Source of the DNA: Escherichia phage Wphi
DNA length: 32,684 nt
Reading direction: 5' to 3' (one strand)
Sequence record: AY135739
Shown here: piece after piece, positions 26,237 through 32,684 of the stretch
How the letters are laid out: each line of letters starts with the position of its first letter
Position numbering within the stretch: position 1 is the stretch's first letter
Position numbers and translations under genes: made by a program
The notes under the pieces: model-generated
Databases searched by the model: none
What the model was told of the DNA's origin: nothing
The model's input: the letters and a program-made list of their open reading frames with translations, nothing else

Positions 26237-28511
26237 AGCCTCCGGGCGTTTTGTCCCTCCGTCAGCATTTGCCGCAGGCACCGGTAAGGCGTTTACCGGT
26301 GCTTATGCATGGAACGCGCCACGCGAGGCTGTCGGGCGCGAAAGACCCCTTACACGTGACGAGATGCGTCAGGTGCAAGGTGTTTTATCCACGATTAACC
26401 GCCTGCCTTACTTTTTGCGCTCGCTGGTTACTTCACGCTATGACTACATCCGGCGCAATAAAAGCCCGGTGCACGGGTTTTATTTCCTTACATCCACTTT
26501 TCAGCGTCGTTTATGGCCGCGCATTGAGCGCGTGAATCAGCGCCATGAAATGAACACCGACGCGTCGTTGCTGTTTCTGGCAGAGCGTGACCATTATGCG
26601 CGCCTGCCTGGAATGAATGACAAGGAGCTGAAAAAGTTTGCTGCCCGTATCTCATCGCAGCTTTTCATGATGTATGAGGAACTCTGCGATGCATGGGTTG
26701 ATGCTCATGGCGAAAAAGAATCGCTGTTTACGGATGAGGCGCAGACTCACCTGTATGGTCATGTTGCTGGCGCTGCACGTGCTTTCAATATTTCCCCGCT
26801 CTACTGGAAAAAATACCGTAAAGGGCAGATGACCACGAGGCAGGCATATTCTGCCATTGCCCGCCTGTTTAACGATGAGTGGTGGACTCATCAGCTTAAA
26901 GGCCAGCGTATGCGCTGGCATGAGGCGTTACTGATTGCTGTCGGGGAGGTCAATAAAGACCGTTCTCCTTATGCCAGTAAACATGCCATTCGTGATGTGC
27001 GTGCGCGCCGCCAGGCAAATCTGGAATTTCTTAAATCGTGTGACCTTGAAAACAAGGAAACCGGCGAGCGCATCGACCTTATCAGTAAGGTGATGGGCAG
27101 TATTTCTAATCCAGAAATTCGCCGGATGGAGCTGATGAACACCATCGCCGGTATTGAGCGTTACGCCGCCGCAGAGGGTGATGTGGGGATGTTTATCACG
27201 CTGACCGCGCCGTCAAAGTATCACCCGACACGTCAGGTCAGAAAAGGCGAAAGTAAAACCGTCCAGCTAAATCACGGCTGGAACGATGAGGCATTTAATC
27301 CAAAGGATGCGCAGCGTTATCTCTGCCGTATCTGGAGCCTGATGCGCACGGCATTCAAGGATAATGATTTACAGGCCTACGGTTTGCGTGTTGTTGAACC
27401 ACACCACGACGGAACGCCGCACTGGCATATGATGCTTTTTTGTAATCCACGCCAGCGTAACCAGATTATTGAAATCATGCGTCGCTATGCGCTCAAAGAG
27501 GATGGCGACGAAAGAGGAGCCGCGCGAAACCGTTTTCAGGCAAAACACCTTAACCGGGGCGGTGCTGCGGGATATATCGCGAAATACATCTCAAAAAACA
27601 TCGACGGCTATGCACTGGATGGTCAGCTCGATAATGATACCGGCAGGCTGCTGAAAGACACTGCAGCGGCTGTTACCGCATGGGCGTCTACGTGGCGCAT
27701 TCCGCAATTTAAAACGGTTGGCCTGCCGACAATGGGGGCTTACCGTGAGCTACGCAAATTGCCTCGCGGCGTCAGCATTGCTGATGAGTTTGACGAACGC
27801 GTCGAGGCTGCACGCGCCGCCGCAGACAGTGGTGATTTTGCGCTGTATATCAGCGCGCAGGGCGGGGCAAATGTCCCGCGCGATTGTCAGACTGTCAGGG
27901 TCGCCCGTAGCCCGTCGGATGACGTTAACGAGTACGAGGAAGAAGTCGAGAGAGTGGTAGGCATTTACGCGCCGCATCTCGGCGCGCGTCATATTCATAT
28001 CACCAGAACGACGGACTGGCGCATTGTGCCGAAAGTTCCGGTCGTTGAGCCTTTGACTTTAAAAAGCGGCATCGCCGCGCCTCGGAGTCCTGTCAATAAC
28101 TGTGGAAAGCCTGCCAGCAGTGATAATTCGTTACCGGCTCCCACGCCTTCTGAGCACGCCGCAGCAGTGCTTAATCTGGTTGATGACGGTGTTATCGAAT
28201 GGAATGACCCGGAGGTCGTGAGGGCGCTCAGGGGCGCATTAAAACACGGGCTGAGAACACCAAATCGTCAGCAGAGAAACGGAAGCCCGTTAAAAACACA
28301 TGAAATTGCACCGTCGGCCAGACTGACCCGGTCGGAACGAATGCAAATTACCCGTATCCGCGTTGACCTCGCTCAGAACGGTATCAGGCCGCAGCGATGG
28401 GAGCTTGAGGCGCTGGCGCGTGGCGCGACCGTAAATTATGACGGGAAAAAATTCACGTATCCAGTCGCTGATGAGTGGCCGGGATTCTCAACAGTAATGG
28501 AGTGGACATGA
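26226..28511 (+). CDS. A: rolling-circle replication initiator endonuclease
   Basis: Start placed at ATG 26226 (MAVKASGRFVPPS...), 761 aa as for P2 gpA; contains HUH-like HWHMMLF and catalytic-tyrosine region GYIAKYISKN. Confidence 0.88.
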   Translation: MAVKASGRFVPPSAFAAGTGKAFTGAYAWNAPREAVGRERPLTRDEMRQVQGVLSTINRLPYFLRSLVTSRYDYIRRNKSPVHGFYFLTSTFQRRLWPRIERVNQRHEMNTDASLLFLAERDHYARLPGMNDKELKKFAARISSQLFMMYEELCDAWVDAHGEKESLFTDEAQTHLYGHVAGAARAFNISPLYWKKYRKGQMTTRQAYSAIARLFNDEWWTHQLKGQRMRWHEALLIAVGEVNKDRSPYASKHAIRDVRARRQANLEFLKSCDLENKETGERIDLISKVMGSISNPEIRRMELMNTIAGIERYAAAEGDVGMFITLTAPSKYHPTRQVRKGESKTVQLNHGWNDEAFNPKDAQRYLCRIWSLMRTAFKDNDLQAYGLRVVEPHHDGTPHWHMMLFCNPRQRNQIIEIMRRYALKEDGDERGAARNRFQAKHLNRGGAAGYIAKYISKNIDGYALDGQLDNDTGRLLKDTAAAVTAWASTWRIPQFKTVGLPTMGAYRELRKLPRGVSIADEFDERVEAARAAADSGDFALYISAQGGANVPRDCQTVRVARSPSDDVNEYEEEVERVVGIYAPHLGARHIHITRTTDWRIVPKVPVVEPLTLKSGIAAPRSPVNNCGKPASSDNSLPAPTPSEHAAAVLNLVDDGVIEWNDPEVVRALRGALKHGLRTPNRQQRNGSPLKTHEIAPSARLTRSERMQITRIRVDLAQNGIRPQRWELEALARGATVNYDGKKFTYPVADEWPGFSTVMEWT

Positions 28512-28789
28512 TGGCAAAAATTCACGAGGTAAAGCTGCACGCAAAATATTTCGACCTTGTGCTGGAAGGAAAGAAACGCGCAGAGTTTCGGAAAAATGAC
28601 CGTAATTATGAGCGCGGGGACACGTTGATTTTGCATGAATGGGTACAGGGTGTGTTTACGGGGCGAAAGGTTGAAGCCCGGATAACAGATGTTACTGACC
28701 TGTCAGACTGGCTGGAAGATTATGTCTTGCTAAGTATTGAGCTGCTTAATACAGGCGTATATGAGATTGTGAACTGGAAAGAAACTTAG
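28508..28789 (+). CDS. hypothetical protein, ASCH/DUF3850-like (P2 orf91 position)
   Basis: ATG at 28508 overlaps the A stop (ATGA); about 93 aa MMAKIHEVKLHAKYFDLVLEGKKRAEFRKNDRNYERGD... Confidence 0.55.
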   Translation: MMAKIHEVKLHAKYFDLVLEGKKRAEFRKNDRNYERGDTLILHEWVQGVFTGRKVEARITDVTDLSDWLEDYVLLSIELLNTGVYEIVNWKET

Positions 28790-28828
28790 TGAGCCGTGGC
28801 TTGGTATTCAGAAATTAATCATGAAATT

Positions 28829-29023
28829 ATGCATCAGCTCGGCCTTGCTGTTATGTATGAACCAGAGACGGGGATGTCTGGCGGGGCAATGGTTGCCACG
28901 GATGGAGCATGGAACTATTCAGATGAACAGATGGAGCCGTGCACAGCAAAACGGGTGGCTTGGATAATGCACAGAATACCAGGCGAGATACCCGCACCCA
29001 TAAAACTAAAAATATCAAGCTGA
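28829..29023 (+). CDS. questionable small ORF at the accessory-island boundary
   Basis: ORF-track start 28796 is GTG; first ATG at 28829 has no convincing RBS; 64 aa, no recognisable features. Confidence 0.2.
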   Translation: MHQLGLAVMYEPETGMSGGAMVATDGAWNYSDEQMEPCTAKRVAWIMHRIPGEIPAPIKLKISS

Positions 29024-29380
29024 TGGCTATTGTTCAGCGTTTACCAGCGGATTATGGTCAACGAAAATCTGACGCCCGATGAGCTGGTCGGGTGTGCCGA
29101 AATAGTCCGGGATAATTACGGGCGGTTTAACCATATCGGTCAGTCCAGAGTTGCGCCACCACAACGCAGACGATAGAGAACGCCGCCAGTCGTGAAACTT
29201 GTTTTCAGGGCTGGCGGGGTTGAATAACGAGTGTCGCGAGGCGTTAGTTTGAGCTTACAATTAAACCTATTGAAAATTAATGAGAAGTCAATTTTATCTT
29301 TTTCTCGTTAAAGATGGCCACAACTACTAAAACGTGAGAATATCAAGACTTGGCAAAATCTAGCTTTTCCCAACGGGGTG

Positions 29381-29418
29381 TTTCGCTATAATACGCGGTC
29401 GGTTTTTAGGAGGGGTCA
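29381..29418 (+). promoter_or_regulatory. putative promoter -10 element and RBS for the methyltransferase gene
   Basis: Consensus TATAAT at 29387-29392; AGGAGG at 29407-29412, 6 nt before the ATG; no good -35 seen. Confidence 0.4.
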
Positions 29419-30357
29419 ATGCCAACTGTAGTTTCACTTTTTTCTGGATGTGGTGGTTCTGATGCGGGAGTTTTGAACGCAGGTTTCAATGTGCTTATGG
29501 CAAATGATATTTTGCCTTACGCAAGGGACGTTTACTTAGAAAACCATCCTGAAACTGACTACATTTTGGGCGATATCTCAGGGCTCCAGTCGTTCCCTTC
29601 TGCTGAGTTGCTCATCGGATGCTATCCTTGCCAAGGATTTAGTCAAGGTGGGGCAAGGAAGGCAGATAGAAAGATTAATACACTATATTTAGAGTTTGCC
29701 CGTGCTTTGAGTAAAATTAAGCCAAAAGCATTCATTGTAGAGAATGTCTCTGGTATGGTAAGGCGTAACTTTGAGCATTTATTAAAGGATCAATTCAAAG
29801 TTTTCGAAGAAGCAGGTTATACAGTAAGCTCGCAAATTCTGAATGCGTCCCATTATGGGGTATCCCAAGATAGGAAGCGAATCTTTATCGTAGGAATACG
29901 AAAGGACTACGGTATTACATACAAATTTCCAAAACCAACACATGGTGATGGTTTGACACCATATTCCACAATTCGTGATGCTATTGGGCATATGCCTGTT
30001 TGGCCTGTTGGCGAGTTTTATGACGCCGATTTTCATTGGTATTATCTATCGCGAAACCGTAGGCAAGATTGGGATCAGATATCTAAAACAATTGTTGCAA
30101 ATCCTAGACATATGCCTCTACATCCAATAAGTCCAACATTAGAAAAATTGGGACCTGATAAGTGGCAATTTACTTCGGATGCACCAGCTCGTAGGTTTAG
30201 CTATCGAGAGGCTGCTATTTTACAAGGTTTTGGAGATTTAATTTTCCCAGAAACTGAACGGGCTTCTATTAATATGAAATATACTGTGGTAGGTAATGCA
30301 GTACCGCCTCCATTGTTTGAGGCGGTTGCTAGAAACCTTCCAGATTTATGGGATTAA
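29419..30357 (+). CDS. DNA (cytosine-5)-methyltransferase
   Basis: 312 aa with C5-MTase motifs in canonical order: FSGCGG (motif I), PCQGFS (motif IV, catalytic Cys), ENV (motif VI), QDRKR (motif VIII), GNAVPPPL (motif X); AT-rich gene. Confidence 0.85.
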   Translation: MPTVVSLFSGCGGSDAGVLNAGFNVLMANDILPYARDVYLENHPETDYILGDISGLQSFPSAELLIGCYPCQGFSQGGARKADRKINTLYLEFARALSKIKPKAFIVENVSGMVRRNFEHLLKDQFKVFEEAGYTVSSQILNASHYGVSQDRKRIFIVGIRKDYGITYKFPKPTHGDGLTPYSTIRDAIGHMPVWPVGEFYDADFHWYYLSRNRRQDWDQISKTIVANPRHMPLHPISPTLEKLGPDKWQFTSDAPARRFSYREAAILQGFGDLIFPETERASINMKYTVVGNAVPPPLFEAVARNLPDLWD

Positions 30358-31391
30358 GCAGCGATCGCGCTGGAAGGATCAAGGATGATATCTAGATAGC
30401 TAATATTTTGACTGTGATCAATATTATCAGATGCTCTGGTTAAATTGATTAATCTTAGGCGATCAACAAAAATAGCATCGCCTAACTTATTTTTATGTGC
30501 CCACTCACCATCTATCCATCGTAGATCTTGAGGTAAGAAATAATAAGTTGCCCATCGGTGAGCTACGGGGAATTTACTGTAGAGCATCGCAGGTGAGGCC
30601 TCAAGCTGCTTCGCTTCCCACTCTTCTTGAGAACAGCCACACTGAACAAAAGAAATAGGGATGGCATCTCGTTGATCTCCCATTGGATGCCAGGCAATTA
30701 TGTCAAGGCCTCCGTCACCACTATTTCCTCGACTGAAATCTCGTTCTTTGAAGTTCGCTGTGCAACGGATATCGGAAGCAATACTCTTAAATTTATTATA
30801 TAGAGTTCCAGTGTAAGGGGCCGCTTGACCACCAGAAGCCCAGCATGCTTTTATTATGCTACCGCTAGGCATTAGGCTTTCAAAAATAGGTAAACTAATT
30901 AGTTCAAAACTGCGCGTTATCTCTCTTCTGCTCATTATGTTGACATATTTTATGTTAGCACAGATTAGTAAAGCTAAATATAGTCTTTCTAAATGTTCCA
31001 GTGGCTTTTCTGATATATCACGTAACTCTACAGTATCGTTGTCTTCTGATAAAGTAAAAGGGTAACTATCCCCAAATAAATCAATGCGTTGTCGTATGAA
31101 GCCTATCGCATAGCTCCACTTTCTGTCAGTATATGCTCGACTAACACTTCGTTTTGTTCTCTTGCGTACAGGCGTATCATTTTCATCATCAACATCATAA
31201 ACGCCCTCTTCTTCTGCTTCATCTGTTTCAGCTAGTACTGCTTCGGGTTGAGCTTGCAGTGTGCTATATAGGTCTCCTCGACTGAATGACCTGTCGATAT
31301 TAGTTAAGGCCAATATCTCAATATAATCAGCCCATAAATAAGGCTCATTAGAAGGCATTGAATCAAGATTTGTAATCATAATCTCAATCAT
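30354..31391 (-). CDS. hypothetical protein, second gene of leftward operon, convergent with the methyltransferase
   Basis: Start assigned to ATG 31389-31391 abutting GGGAGG (alternative ATG 31377-31379), about 345 aa; acidic tract ETDEAEEEGVYDVDDEND; stop codon overlaps the MTase stop (TTAA); AT-rich. Confidence 0.6.
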   Translation of the reverse strand: MIEIMITNLDSMPSNEPYLWADYIEILALTNIDRSFSRGDLYSTLQAQPEAVLAETDEAEEEGVYDVDDENDTPVRKRTKRSVSRAYTDRKWSYAIGFIRQRIDLFGDSYPFTLSEDNDTVELRDISEKPLEHLERLYLALLICANIKYVNIMSRREITRSFELISLPIFESLMPSGSIIKACWASGGQAAPYTGTLYNKFKSIASDIRCTANFKERDFSRGNSGDGGLDIIAWHPMGDQRDAIPISFVQCGCSQEEWEAKQLEASPAMLYSKFPVAHRWATYYFLPQDLRWIDGEWAHKNKLGDAIFVDRLRLINLTRASDNIDHSQNISYLDIILDPSSAIAA

Positions 31392-32457
31392 CCTCCCTTT
31401 TGCTTCTGATCTGATTTCTAATATTTTTTGACATCTCAAAAATTTCAGATGCAGCCTCTTCATGCTCTAATGTTAATTCTTTAGCTTTAAGTAGCATATC
31501 CCAAACTACTCTTAATTTAACACTAGCTGCGTTTAGTGCTTTATCTAATGCTTCTCTTTCTCCGCTGGTATATAGATATGCTTCATCCAAGTTTGAACTT
31601 TTCATGAGAATTTCAATTGCTTCGGGTTTCTCAACCACTGCTGCAATATCTTTTATTCTTCGAGACTCACCGATGATGGTTCTACCTTGTTGGTCAGGCA
31701 CAAAAAACCAAGAGAATAAACGCTTAAGGTTTTCTTCATTTAAATTTGGGTCTAAAAAATCCTTTTTATCCTGTAGACCTAACCAGTTTGTGATTTTTGA
31801 ATATCCCAAAGCTGTGGTTATATATGAAAATTCCACGTCAGAAGCCTTCATGGGTAAATTAAAAAACTCATGGTCATGCGCGACTTCATATAAGTTCAGT
31901 GCAGTGAGAAGTGTTGCAACATAATGTGGTTTACTCCCAATCTCACGAGCCAGATTTTTTAATACTATCTCTTTAGGTTCATGTGAATAAAAAGTATCAC
32001 ATAACTCTTTAAGGTATTTGGCTTTAGATAATGAGTCCCATTCTTTGACCCCAGTTATATGACGATAACCGATATATCTCAGTACATCCTCTCGGTTTTC
32101 ATAAATGATGCAGGGAAGCTTCTTAGGTTTATTGGTAGTATCATCAATGATTTCTTGCACACCTTTAAGTTTTCTTTTTGGAGGAAGCAGATCTCCATTG
32201 AGCAACTTTACAGCAGCTAAGCGTCTGTTTCCCTCAACCACGATGTAGTTTCCATTGCTTTTTACTGCCAATAAAGGTTCTCCAGGAAAGTAACCTTGCT
32301 GACCGATTGATAGCATTAGATCGTGGACACTTTCGTCATCTAACATTTCCTCAATGACTGTTGCAGCGTTACTGGCATCATTGAGACGAAAGAAACGTGG
32401 GTTTTTAGGGTCAAAATCAAGCTTATTTGTCTCAATTTCTACGATTTTGTTATCCAT
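31384..32457 (-). CDS. ParB/Srx-fold (ParB N-terminal domain-like) protein
   Basis: Start assigned to ATG 32455-32457 with GAGG RBS about 5 nt upstream (357 aa; ORF-track maximum 401 aa); ParB-box-like FDPKNPRF and VVEGNRRLAAVKLL; overlaps downstream gene by 8 nt. Confidence 0.65.
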   Translation of the reverse strand: MDNKIVEIETNKLDFDPKNPRFFRLNDASNAATVIEEMLDDESVHDLMLSIGQQGYFPGEPLLAVKSNGNYIVVEGNRRLAAVKLLNGDLLPPKRKLKGVQEIIDDTTNKPKKLPCIIYENREDVLRYIGYRHITGVKEWDSLSKAKYLKELCDTFYSHEPKEIVLKNLAREIGSKPHYVATLLTALNLYEVAHDHEFFNLPMKASDVEFSYITTALGYSKITNWLGLQDKKDFLDPNLNEENLKRLFSWFFVPDQQGRTIIGESRRIKDIAAVVEKPEAIEILMKSSNLDEAYLYTSGEREALDKALNAASVKLRVVWDMLLKAKELTLEHEEAASEIFEMSKNIRNQIRSKREDD

Positions 32458-32684
32458 CTTAACCTCATGGGATGATGTAAATATCTTTTGGGGGATGCTT
32501 GATAAAACATCCATATTTGATCGTTTGCAGCGCATTTGATACATCGAAGTGTACAAAAATGCTGGGCATAACTCTGCATTAAAATGCATTCACATTCAAA
32601 GCACTATTTTCTCGTTGGACATTTAGCCTAAGAGAGTTTGGACGGCTTTTGGAATTGCATCAAAACCGACCCATGAAGCGGGCG

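Follow-up and report, generated by a model that had tools for sequence, protein, structure and literature searches.

Escherichia phage Wphi (sequence record AY135739) carries a three-gene cassette that resembles a restriction-modification (R-M) system, and here we describe its genes, their distribution and the ways in which they may act together. The window, that is, the whole stretch of 32,684 nucleotides (nt) that was analysed, has the order of open reading frames (ORFs) portal, terminase, capsid, tail, integrase, C/cox, B and gpA replication protein, and a Pfam search of its proteins matched the latter to PF05840 (E 3e-122), which shows the window to be a complete P2-like (Peduovirus) genome. 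Its final 3.5 kb are 99.9-100% identical to a GenBank record named ‘Peduovirus P2’, and the same 3.5 kb are found, at 99.9-100% identity, in a prophage of E. coli W and in about 100 other E. coli chromosomes. The cassette sits between the replication gene A and the portal gene Q, an interval that corresponds to the tin/old position of P2 and is a documented hotspot of defence cargo (PMC9519451; PMC9122126).

The three genes are referred to below as M (C5 methyltransferase), N (nuclease-like protein) and P (ParB/KorB-like protein). M (29419..30357, plus strand) codes for a HaeIII-type C5 cytosine DNA methyltransferase of 312 amino acids (aa), N (30354..31391, minus strand) for a Pfam-less protein of 345 aa with a predicted restriction-endonuclease-like fold, and P (31384..32457, minus strand) for a ParB/KorB-like protein of 357 aa. 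M and N are convergent, and their stop codons overlap in a stretch of four bases (30354..30357), with the TAA of M at 30355-30357 on the plus strand and that of N at 30354-30356 on the minus strand; in many distant loci the stop codons of the two genes likewise overlap by 4 nt or lie a few bases apart. At its other end, N starts within or directly next to the stop codon of P, an arrangement that suggests coupled translation of P and N.

The ORF of M is uninterrupted from ATG to TAA (312 codons). Its product matches Pfam PF00145 with an E value of 9.9e-62 and 209.7 bits (cutoff 22), residues 3-307 covering positions 2-322 of the 324 in the profile, and NCBIfam TIGR00675 (dcm) with 1.8e-54 and 185.6 bits against a threshold of 100.65. 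Six motifs can be read in its translation, all encoded on the plus strand: motif I, FSGCGG (aa 8-13, 29440-29457); motif IV, PCQ, with the predicted catalytic Cys71 (aa 70-72, 29626-29634); motif VI, ENV (aa 108-110, 29740-29748); motif VIII, QDRKR (aa 150-154, 29866-29880); motif IX, REAAILQGF (aa 263-271, 30205-30231); and motif X, GNAVP (aa 292-296, 30292-30306). The full-length profile match above threshold and the canonical order of the motifs place M in the C5-methyltransferase family, and the claim of a first-pass annotation of this DNA that all core motifs are present in that order is borne out by the six motifs, the PF00145 match and the intact ORF. We consider it very likely, from these features of its sequence, that M is a functional C5 methylase. 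The same annotation described the enzyme as compact; with 312 aa it is indeed small, and 108 residues separate its motifs VIII and IX, but it falls short of M.HaeIII (330 aa) and M.HhaI (327 aa) by only about 5%, and this size is normal for single-specificity C5 enzymes. E. coli W has the same protein (RefSeq WP_001143634.1), and one GenBank record gives its gene the label bspRIM. M is, in short, an ordinary, correctly annotated HaeIII-type enzyme that is already known.

Regarding the site that M may recognise, among the solved C5 enzymes listed in our comparison M.HaeIII is the only distinct one that aligns over the whole length of M. The alignment with PDB entry 1dct_A pairs residues 4-307 of M with residues 3-320 (E 1.6e-48) and includes the target-recognition region, the part for which a comparison with characterised methyltransferases had been proposed. 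M.HhaI and 3g7u give comparable scores, but their alignments are confined to the N-terminal ~170-215 residues of M. When the DNA-contact residues of M.HaeIII given in Table 2 of PMC11879396 were mapped onto the M/1dct alignment, the base contacts S224, R225 and R243 were found to be kept in M as S211, R212 and R230; R225 of M.HaeIII reads the first G of the site, and its loss abolishes that readout (PMC11879396). The target-recognition region of M contains an SRNR tetrapeptide (30049-30060, plus strand). Because of the full-length alignment and the conservation of S224, R225 and R243, a GGCC core is our best guess for the target of M.

Site avoidance was considered as a further signature of this target and was dropped. 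Although the window has only 118 GGCC sites (observed/expected 0.66) and a single TGGCCA against 12.3 expected under a Markov model, the chromosome of E. coli W is equally depleted, with observed and expected counts, in a 100-kb control, of 8 and 24 for TGGCCA, 9 and 20 for CGGCCG, 3 and 13 for AGGCCT, and 0 and 10 for GGGCCC. The depletion is consequently a generic host-like bias and no evidence for the target of M. Palindromic NGGCCN hexamers are all depleted, in phage and host chromosome, while CGGCCA/TGGCCG is over-represented; GATC is also strongly depleted in the phage (30 observed, 129 expected).

The region upstream of M contains a TATAAT hexamer (29387..29392, plus strand), read directly as the putative -10 element of an M promoter and conserved in its position, and a Shine-Dalgarno sequence, AGGAGG (29408..29413, plus strand), 5 nt 5′ of the ATG; around the latter, TAGGAGGGG is kept in most enterobacterial relatives of M. 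A lone TATAAT is in itself not significant, and a consensus promoter scan upstream of M called nothing, because a -35 element is missing. The upstream regions of relatives were compared over the 130 nt before the ATG (61 distinct relatives aligned), and then in a set of 94 dereplicated regions of 150 nt. TATAAT is the commonest hexamer upstream of M across these 94 relatives; it lies within the last 60 nt in 42 of them, and 35 have its first base between -30 and -33 relative to the ATG. In many relatives the flanks of the conserved TATAAT have diverged beyond recognition, so its fixed distance from the start codon argues that the -10 element and the Shine-Dalgarno sequence are under selection. 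The first-pass annotation had given M a promoter of its own and, with it, expression independent of the phage operons. The former appears credible, as judged from the conserved -10 and the strong Shine-Dalgarno sequence, but this promoter, which lacks a -35, is probably weak or factor-dependent; the latter is plausible from the same two signals rather than demonstrated.

Further upstream, about 104 nt 5′ of the ATG of M, lies the near-palindrome GATGGCCACA (29313..29322, plus strand), a candidate regulatory or operator site that includes the sole TGGCCA of the whole window (at 29315). TGGCCA occurs in 26 of the 94 dereplicated M-upstream regions, in 18 of these at -101 to -105, whereas of 101 regions upstream of P, similar in G+C content, just 3 contain it. 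There are also relatives in which it sits across the -35 position or comes immediately after the -10. The longer pattern TRTGGCCAYA is not enriched in the window (5 matches with one mismatch allowed, 3.4 expected). GATGGCCACA resembles a regulatory site whose core is GGCC, and it might act as a switch that responds to methylation or as an operator to which M or P binds.

N has 345 aa; a start at 31379, which would agree with most homologues, shortens it to 341 aa. Pfam, NCBIfam and PADLOC give no match for it, and it falls in a PHROG of unknown function. Its homologues, of about 305 aa, are widespread: 203 matches were found in a word-indexed search, and an exhaustive profile search placed 1487 clusters (at 50% identity) in the family at E <= 1e-3 and 455 at E <= 1e-30. 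Invariant residues include G225-D226-G227, D230, Q250, G252-C253 and K261, and E264 is nearly so. The structural model of N has an N-terminal winged-helix-like part and a C-terminal core of restriction-endonuclease-like, PD-(D/E)xK type. A Foldseek search of this model against PDB gave no significant match; the top matches were restriction enzymes, and EcoT38I is among the weak ones. From the model, we reasonably infer that N would be a nuclease. A strongly acidic insertion occupies residues ~47-90 of the protein (31122-31253, minus strand), with a basic patch after it (EAVLAETDEAEEEGVYDVDDENDTPVRKRTKRS); the acidic insertion is restricted to a clade of N from E. coli, Citrobacter and Morganella, and is absent from the ~300-aa homologues found elsewhere.

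RefSeq lists P as a protein with a ParB N-terminal domain. The protein combines an N-terminal ParB/sulfiredoxin fold with a ParB-type helix-turn-helix region and a helical C-terminus, and it carries an invariant EGNRRLAA box that is the counterpart of the nucleotide-binding motif of ParB, GERRxRA. The most conserved block of the protein is LRY(I/L)GYRHITG (31990-32080, minus strand; residues ~126-136), which has an R-x5-H pattern and lies in a low-confidence loop of the model, with a predicted local distance difference test score (pLDDT) below 50 at residues 131-138. Upstream of P, where the promoter of the P-N operon may lie, there is an inverted repeat, TGCATT-TT-AATGCA (32575-32588, minus strand), that may be an operator; TTGCAT/ATGCAA is found in 27 of the 101 P-upstream regions of relatives and is the commonest hexamer there outside those dominated by A/T runs.

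The association of these three genes was examined in both directions, in 72 GTDB loci found through N and in 80 IMG/VR loci found through M. The methylases of the 80 IMG/VR loci are 68-100% identical to M, and N and P directly adjoin them in all 77 loci with enough flanking sequence, the other three being cut by contig ends. Given this strict linkage, the methylases of the sampled M clade are never orphans. The 72 GTDB loci belong to Proteobacteria, Campylobacterota, Bacteroidota, Chloroflexota, Acidobacteriota, Armatimonadota and Verrucomicrobiota; in them, P lies immediately upstream of N, on the same strand, wherever the contig allows this to be seen, and a C5 methylase adjoins the N-P pair in about 50 loci and is found 3.2 kb away in five more. 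Its orientation varies: it is convergent in most proteobacteria, lies downstream with the same direction of transcription in Bacteroidota and Chloroflexota, and is located upstream in Stenotrophomonas. The cassette is also found in non-phage chromosomal contexts, for instance in Methylotenera and Ramlibacter. It is quite likely, although slightly less so than its enzymatic activity, that M is functionally coupled to N and P, and the proposal of the first-pass annotation that M is the modification half of the adjacent locus is strongly backed by this strict synteny.

The Ramlibacter locus (L003) is the annotated one among those with a distant methylase: the 3.2 kb between N and the methylase gene hold a gene for a Vsr mismatch endonuclease and the gene of a 1044-aa protein with weak N6-methylase similarity, and its C5 methylase has 361 aa and is only 44% identical to M. 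The same 3.2-kb gap separates N from the methylase gene in loci L029-L032 and L040.

Natural interruptions of the cassette point in the same direction as its linkage, as they spare the methylase. Among complete E. coli genomes, all 140 carriers have M in one full-length piece, with no large insertion or deletion, so that the case that would have counted against it, an ORF disrupted in relatives that keep its neighbours, was not encountered among these carriers. By contrast, IS5 splits N in two of 104 genomes (E. coli JXZ9A32M and FXCREC123), and in E. coli E2 an IS2 lies between P and a portal remnant, upstream of P. In these three genomes (loci L008, L009 and L010) M and P are intact although the prophage around them has decayed badly, its gpA and portal genes being truncated. 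Methylase intact and N interrupted is the asymmetry expected of a methylase that is the antidote of a linked toxic activity; the numbers of natural knockouts are small, however, and many of the carriers are clonal.

Just 5′ of the cassette region (28475-29176) the window contains a DUF3850/ASCH gene and a small DUF7415 ORF; RefSeq calls this part otherwise in E. coli W, as a 150-aa DUF3850 protein and a 68-aa protein. The tables of Rousset et al. place DUF3850/ASCH with the cassette (PMC9122126), and the gene may be part of the phage backbone or an accessory gene of the cassette.

Rousset et al. (2022) have already catalogued the cassette and put it through one test, for which no anti-phage activity is recorded. 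It appears in their Table S5B as ‘RM-like system’, the second most abundant system of the P2 hotspot (1136 occurrences), and in their Table S2 as plasmid pFR107, which carries the E. coli W copy and is described as ‘RM-like’, P2, three genes, from E. coli ATCC 9637 (PMC9122126). The proteins of the window are letter for letter those of pFR107: the identity covers all of M, and that of N and P begins at MITNLDS... and MDNKIVEIE..., respectively. The defence assay used native promoters, a pSC101 vector, strain K-12 MG1655 and eight phages, and three other P2 systems are the only ones that the main text reports as active (PMC9122126). Literature searches on the RefSeq accessions, on GGCC methylomes and on ParB/CTP (cytidine triphosphate) defence mechanisms found no study of the mechanism of the cassette; a preprint on transposon sequencing (Tn-seq) in Pectobacteriaceae concerns other R-M systems and not the M/N/P cassette.

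The reading that we favour, with moderate confidence, is that M is the modification part of a three-gene RM-like cassette in which P and N form a restriction or toxic arm. The genetic linkage of a methylase to a nuclease-like gene, one of the features of type II R-M systems, is indeed found here. In this model, M would be transcribed from its own weak and probably constitutive promoter, with a conserved -10 and no -35, which the nearby TGGCCA palindrome may make sensitive to methylation or to a repressor. M would then methylate a site with a GGCC core on the chromosome of the lysogen and on the prophage. P would be a nucleotide-dependent, ParB/KorB-like DNA-binding protein and N a PD-(D/E)xK-like nuclease, both produced from a two-gene operon convergent with M, and together they would constitute a restriction or toxic arm that is restrained on self DNA by the methylation due to M. 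We infer that the cassette as a whole would be a phage defence or addiction module.

Several observations weigh against this reading. First, two of the five base contacts of M.HaeIII are altered in M (S219 and Q244 are both replaced by His), which leaves the exact target of M unsettled; judging from the alignment, the site could equally well be or not be exactly GGCC. Second, no acceptable -35 hexamer is found 16-19 nt 5′ of the TATAAT, and the literature searches found neither GGCC methylomes of E. coli W or other carriers nor expression data for them. Third, pFR107 is listed among the ‘additional tested systems’ (Table S2B), outside the ‘validated defense systems’ of Table S2A (PMC9122126), while a classical type II enzyme specific for GGCC should restrict lambda and T7 strongly. 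Finally, in phage vB_EcoM-12474III (L002) M is 97.8% identical to that of the window, but N is only 23.7% and P 32% identical, which would be unexpected if M and N had to recognise one and the same site.

The result obtained with pFR107 is confounded by the strain, as MG1655 is McrBC+/Mrr+ and methylation of this kind is probably toxic there. For instance, the cloning of PD-lambda-5 by Vassallo et al. required an MG1655 derivative without the mrr region (PMC9519451), and the natural host of our cassette, E. coli W, lacks hsd, mcrBC and mrr (PMC3032704). The cassette of pFR107 may consequently have been silenced or mutated in MG1655. Regarding the divergence of N, that of vB_EcoM-12474III begins at the M/N stop-codon junction, and among the viral loci, in which M is at least 70% identical, the profile scores of N fall in three classes (~1e-140, 1e-80 and 1e-35), and the N and P partners together form about three groups of divergence. 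With N divergent and M conserved, one site may be read by N proteins that differ greatly, or else N does not read that site; these comparisons of sequence suggest that the restriction arm evolves fast or is exchanged as a module. Taken as a separate claim, that the cassette restricts unmethylated DNA in the classical manner is a proposition that we hold to be slightly more doubtful than probable.

The alternative that survives best, which we nevertheless regard as unlikely, is that the cassette does not cut unmethylated sites in the classical manner and that P senses the modification state of the DNA. P would read the mark, or would load at a specific site such as the TGGCCA palindrome, and would license a largely non-specific N, as in SspE, DndI or PD-lambda-5; defence would then be narrow, abortive or host-specific. 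This would fit the absence of recorded activity of pFR107 against eight unmethylated phages, the fall of N to 24% identity while M stays at 98%, and the specificity of TGGCCA for the promoter region of M. Additionally, the N-terminal 150 residues of P are common to PD-Lambda-5_A, and the nucleoside triphosphatase (NTPase)-nuclease fusions of the ParB superfamily, SspE and DndI, are known phosphorothioate sensors; in DndI, DNA that carries phosphorothioates stimulates the ParB-like DUF262 ATPase (PMC11662687). The DGQQR motif of DUF262 is absent from P, however, and neither P nor N matches Pfam DUF262, GmrSD_N or GmrSD_C, nor does P match DndB.

The N-P pairs that have no C5 methylase also bear on this alternative. 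About nine such loci have enough flanking sequence, and six of them (L072, L074, L078, L080, L081 and L082, from Campylobacterota, Alteromonadales and relatives) have DndD-like genes (SMC-type ATPase), DndC-like genes (PAPS-reductase) or both within a few kb, often with GmrSD, Mrr or HEPN genes near; the Dnd-like assignment is by Pfam for L078 and by eye, from the translations, for the other five. These distant pairs favour a P that senses a modification and are hints that P-N is a portable restriction module that partners different self-marking chemistries, but the adjacency could also be a coincidence of defence islands. A fuller version of this idea, to which we give somewhat less weight than to modification sensing by P, is that P-N is modification-agnostic, using C5 methylation in most lineages and phosphorothioation (the DndC/DndD-like genes) in others. 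P would then be a nucleotide-gated clamp in the style of KorB/ParB that senses the state of modification, or is loaded at the TGGCCA palindrome, and controls a poorly specific N, and M would be a self-marker for a sliding sensor rather than a site-by-site antidote.

It is improbable, in our opinion, that the cassette serves mainly for selfish addiction, keeping the prophage stable by post-segregational killing, with little or no anti-phage benefit. This would fit the survival of an intact cassette in heavily decayed prophage remnants, whose gpA and portal genes are truncated, and the lack of recorded defence for pFR107; moreover, type II R-M systems are known to act as addiction modules (PMC4722110). 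Against it, the hotspot is dominated by defence systems, and the relative PD-lambda-5 defends broadly. Addiction and defence are, in any case, compatible with each other.

Phage-borne orphan methylases are common, and the first-pass annotation had raised the possibility that M protects the phage DNA from host restriction. M could be a solitary anti-restriction or epigenetic methylase that modifies phage or host DNA in advance, so as to evade GGCC-type host enzymes, and has no tie to its neighbours. The promoter of M and its location on the strand opposite to N and P fit this proposal, but M and its close relatives are never solitary: N and P flank them in 77 of 77 viral loci with enough flanking sequence, the linkage extends across phyla and to non-phage contexts, the 4-nt overlap joins the stop codons of M and N, and the Vsr gene of the Ramlibacter locus is a typical companion of R-M systems based on 5-methylcytosine (m5C). 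We therefore abandon the claim of a free-standing anti-restriction enzyme as very improbable.

The weakest alternative, that M is the DruM of a type II Druantia system, can practically be dismissed and was rejected as a candidate: DruM2 is the best PADLOC match to M (PDLC00027, E 1e-110), most likely because C5 methylases are broadly similar, but this match stands alone, as the window has no DruE, DruF, DruG or large helicase gene, the neighbours of M being N, P and then the phage portal gene, and there is neither DruE/F/G nor a large helicase gene in 152 related loci.

What can be gained from the favoured reading, in which P and N are the restriction or toxic arm and M its modification counterpart, does not concern the methylase, a routine enzyme that alone changes nothing. 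The interest lies in how P and N work and in why no defence has been recorded for a cassette that is the second most common cargo of the P2 hotspot by the count of Rousset et al. (PMC9122126). Once known, the mechanism of P would explain a common prophage cargo and would connect PD-lambda-5, SspE/DndI and the ParB-type nucleotide switches; if the modification-agnostic version of P-N were true, it would be a restriction mechanism built on ParB-type clamps. Additionally, the mechanism of P would show whether DNA is methylated and restricted in E. coli W, an industrial strain regarded as ‘restriction minus’.

Among known systems, pFR107 is the same element in the same gpA-gpQ position, described by Rousset et al. 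as an ‘RM-like system’ with no mechanism given (PMC9122126). The methylase is comparable to M.HaeIII (PDB 1dct/3ubt) and its isospecific relatives, such as M.BspRI, and it shares with M.HaeIII the position of Cys71; it is, however, about 18 residues shorter than M.HaeIII and differs from it in the phosphate contacts S79 and R87, and its partners are two genes instead of a single classical endonuclease of HaeIII type. A similar difference is found with other R-M systems of these prophages. EcoT38I itself is encoded on a P2-like prophage, and, like the other R-M systems of the P2 and P4 hotspots, it has a single endonuclease gene without a ParB-like partner. These systems include type III restriction endonucleases in the P2 hotspot and type II and type III R-M systems in that of P4 (PMC9122126).

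SspE, DndI and GmrSD resemble the P-N pair in that a nucleotide-dependent module of the ParB superfamily is combined with a nuclease and tied to DNA modification. In these proteins, DUF262 is fused to a DUF1524 HNH nuclease, whereas P and N are separate proteins; DUF262 has the motif DGQQR where P carries EGNRR, and N is predicted to be PD-(D/E)xK-like and not HNH.

PD-lambda-5 was considered as a possible identity of the cassette and was rejected, because its methylase is of another class and P has no HEPN fusion. Both are carried by intact prophages, and PD-lambda-5 was described by its authors as a compacted prophage system of restriction-modification and abortive infection (RM+Abi), with an attached DNA methyltransferase whose methylation is not tolerated in hosts that have the mrr region (PMC9519451). 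PD-lambda-5 consists, however, of two genes, in which a HEPN effector is fused to the ParB-like protein, and its B component is a Dam-like MethyltransfD12 enzyme (PF02086, N6-adenine), while M belongs to PF00145 and is a C5 methylase. As PD-lambda-5_A shares with P only the ParB-like N-terminal 150 residues (PADLOC E 3e-24) and the methylases differ in class, we consider the cassette a relative of PD-lambda-5 and not the same system; PD-lambda-5, which gives broad defence, is thus its nearest validated relative (PMC9519451).

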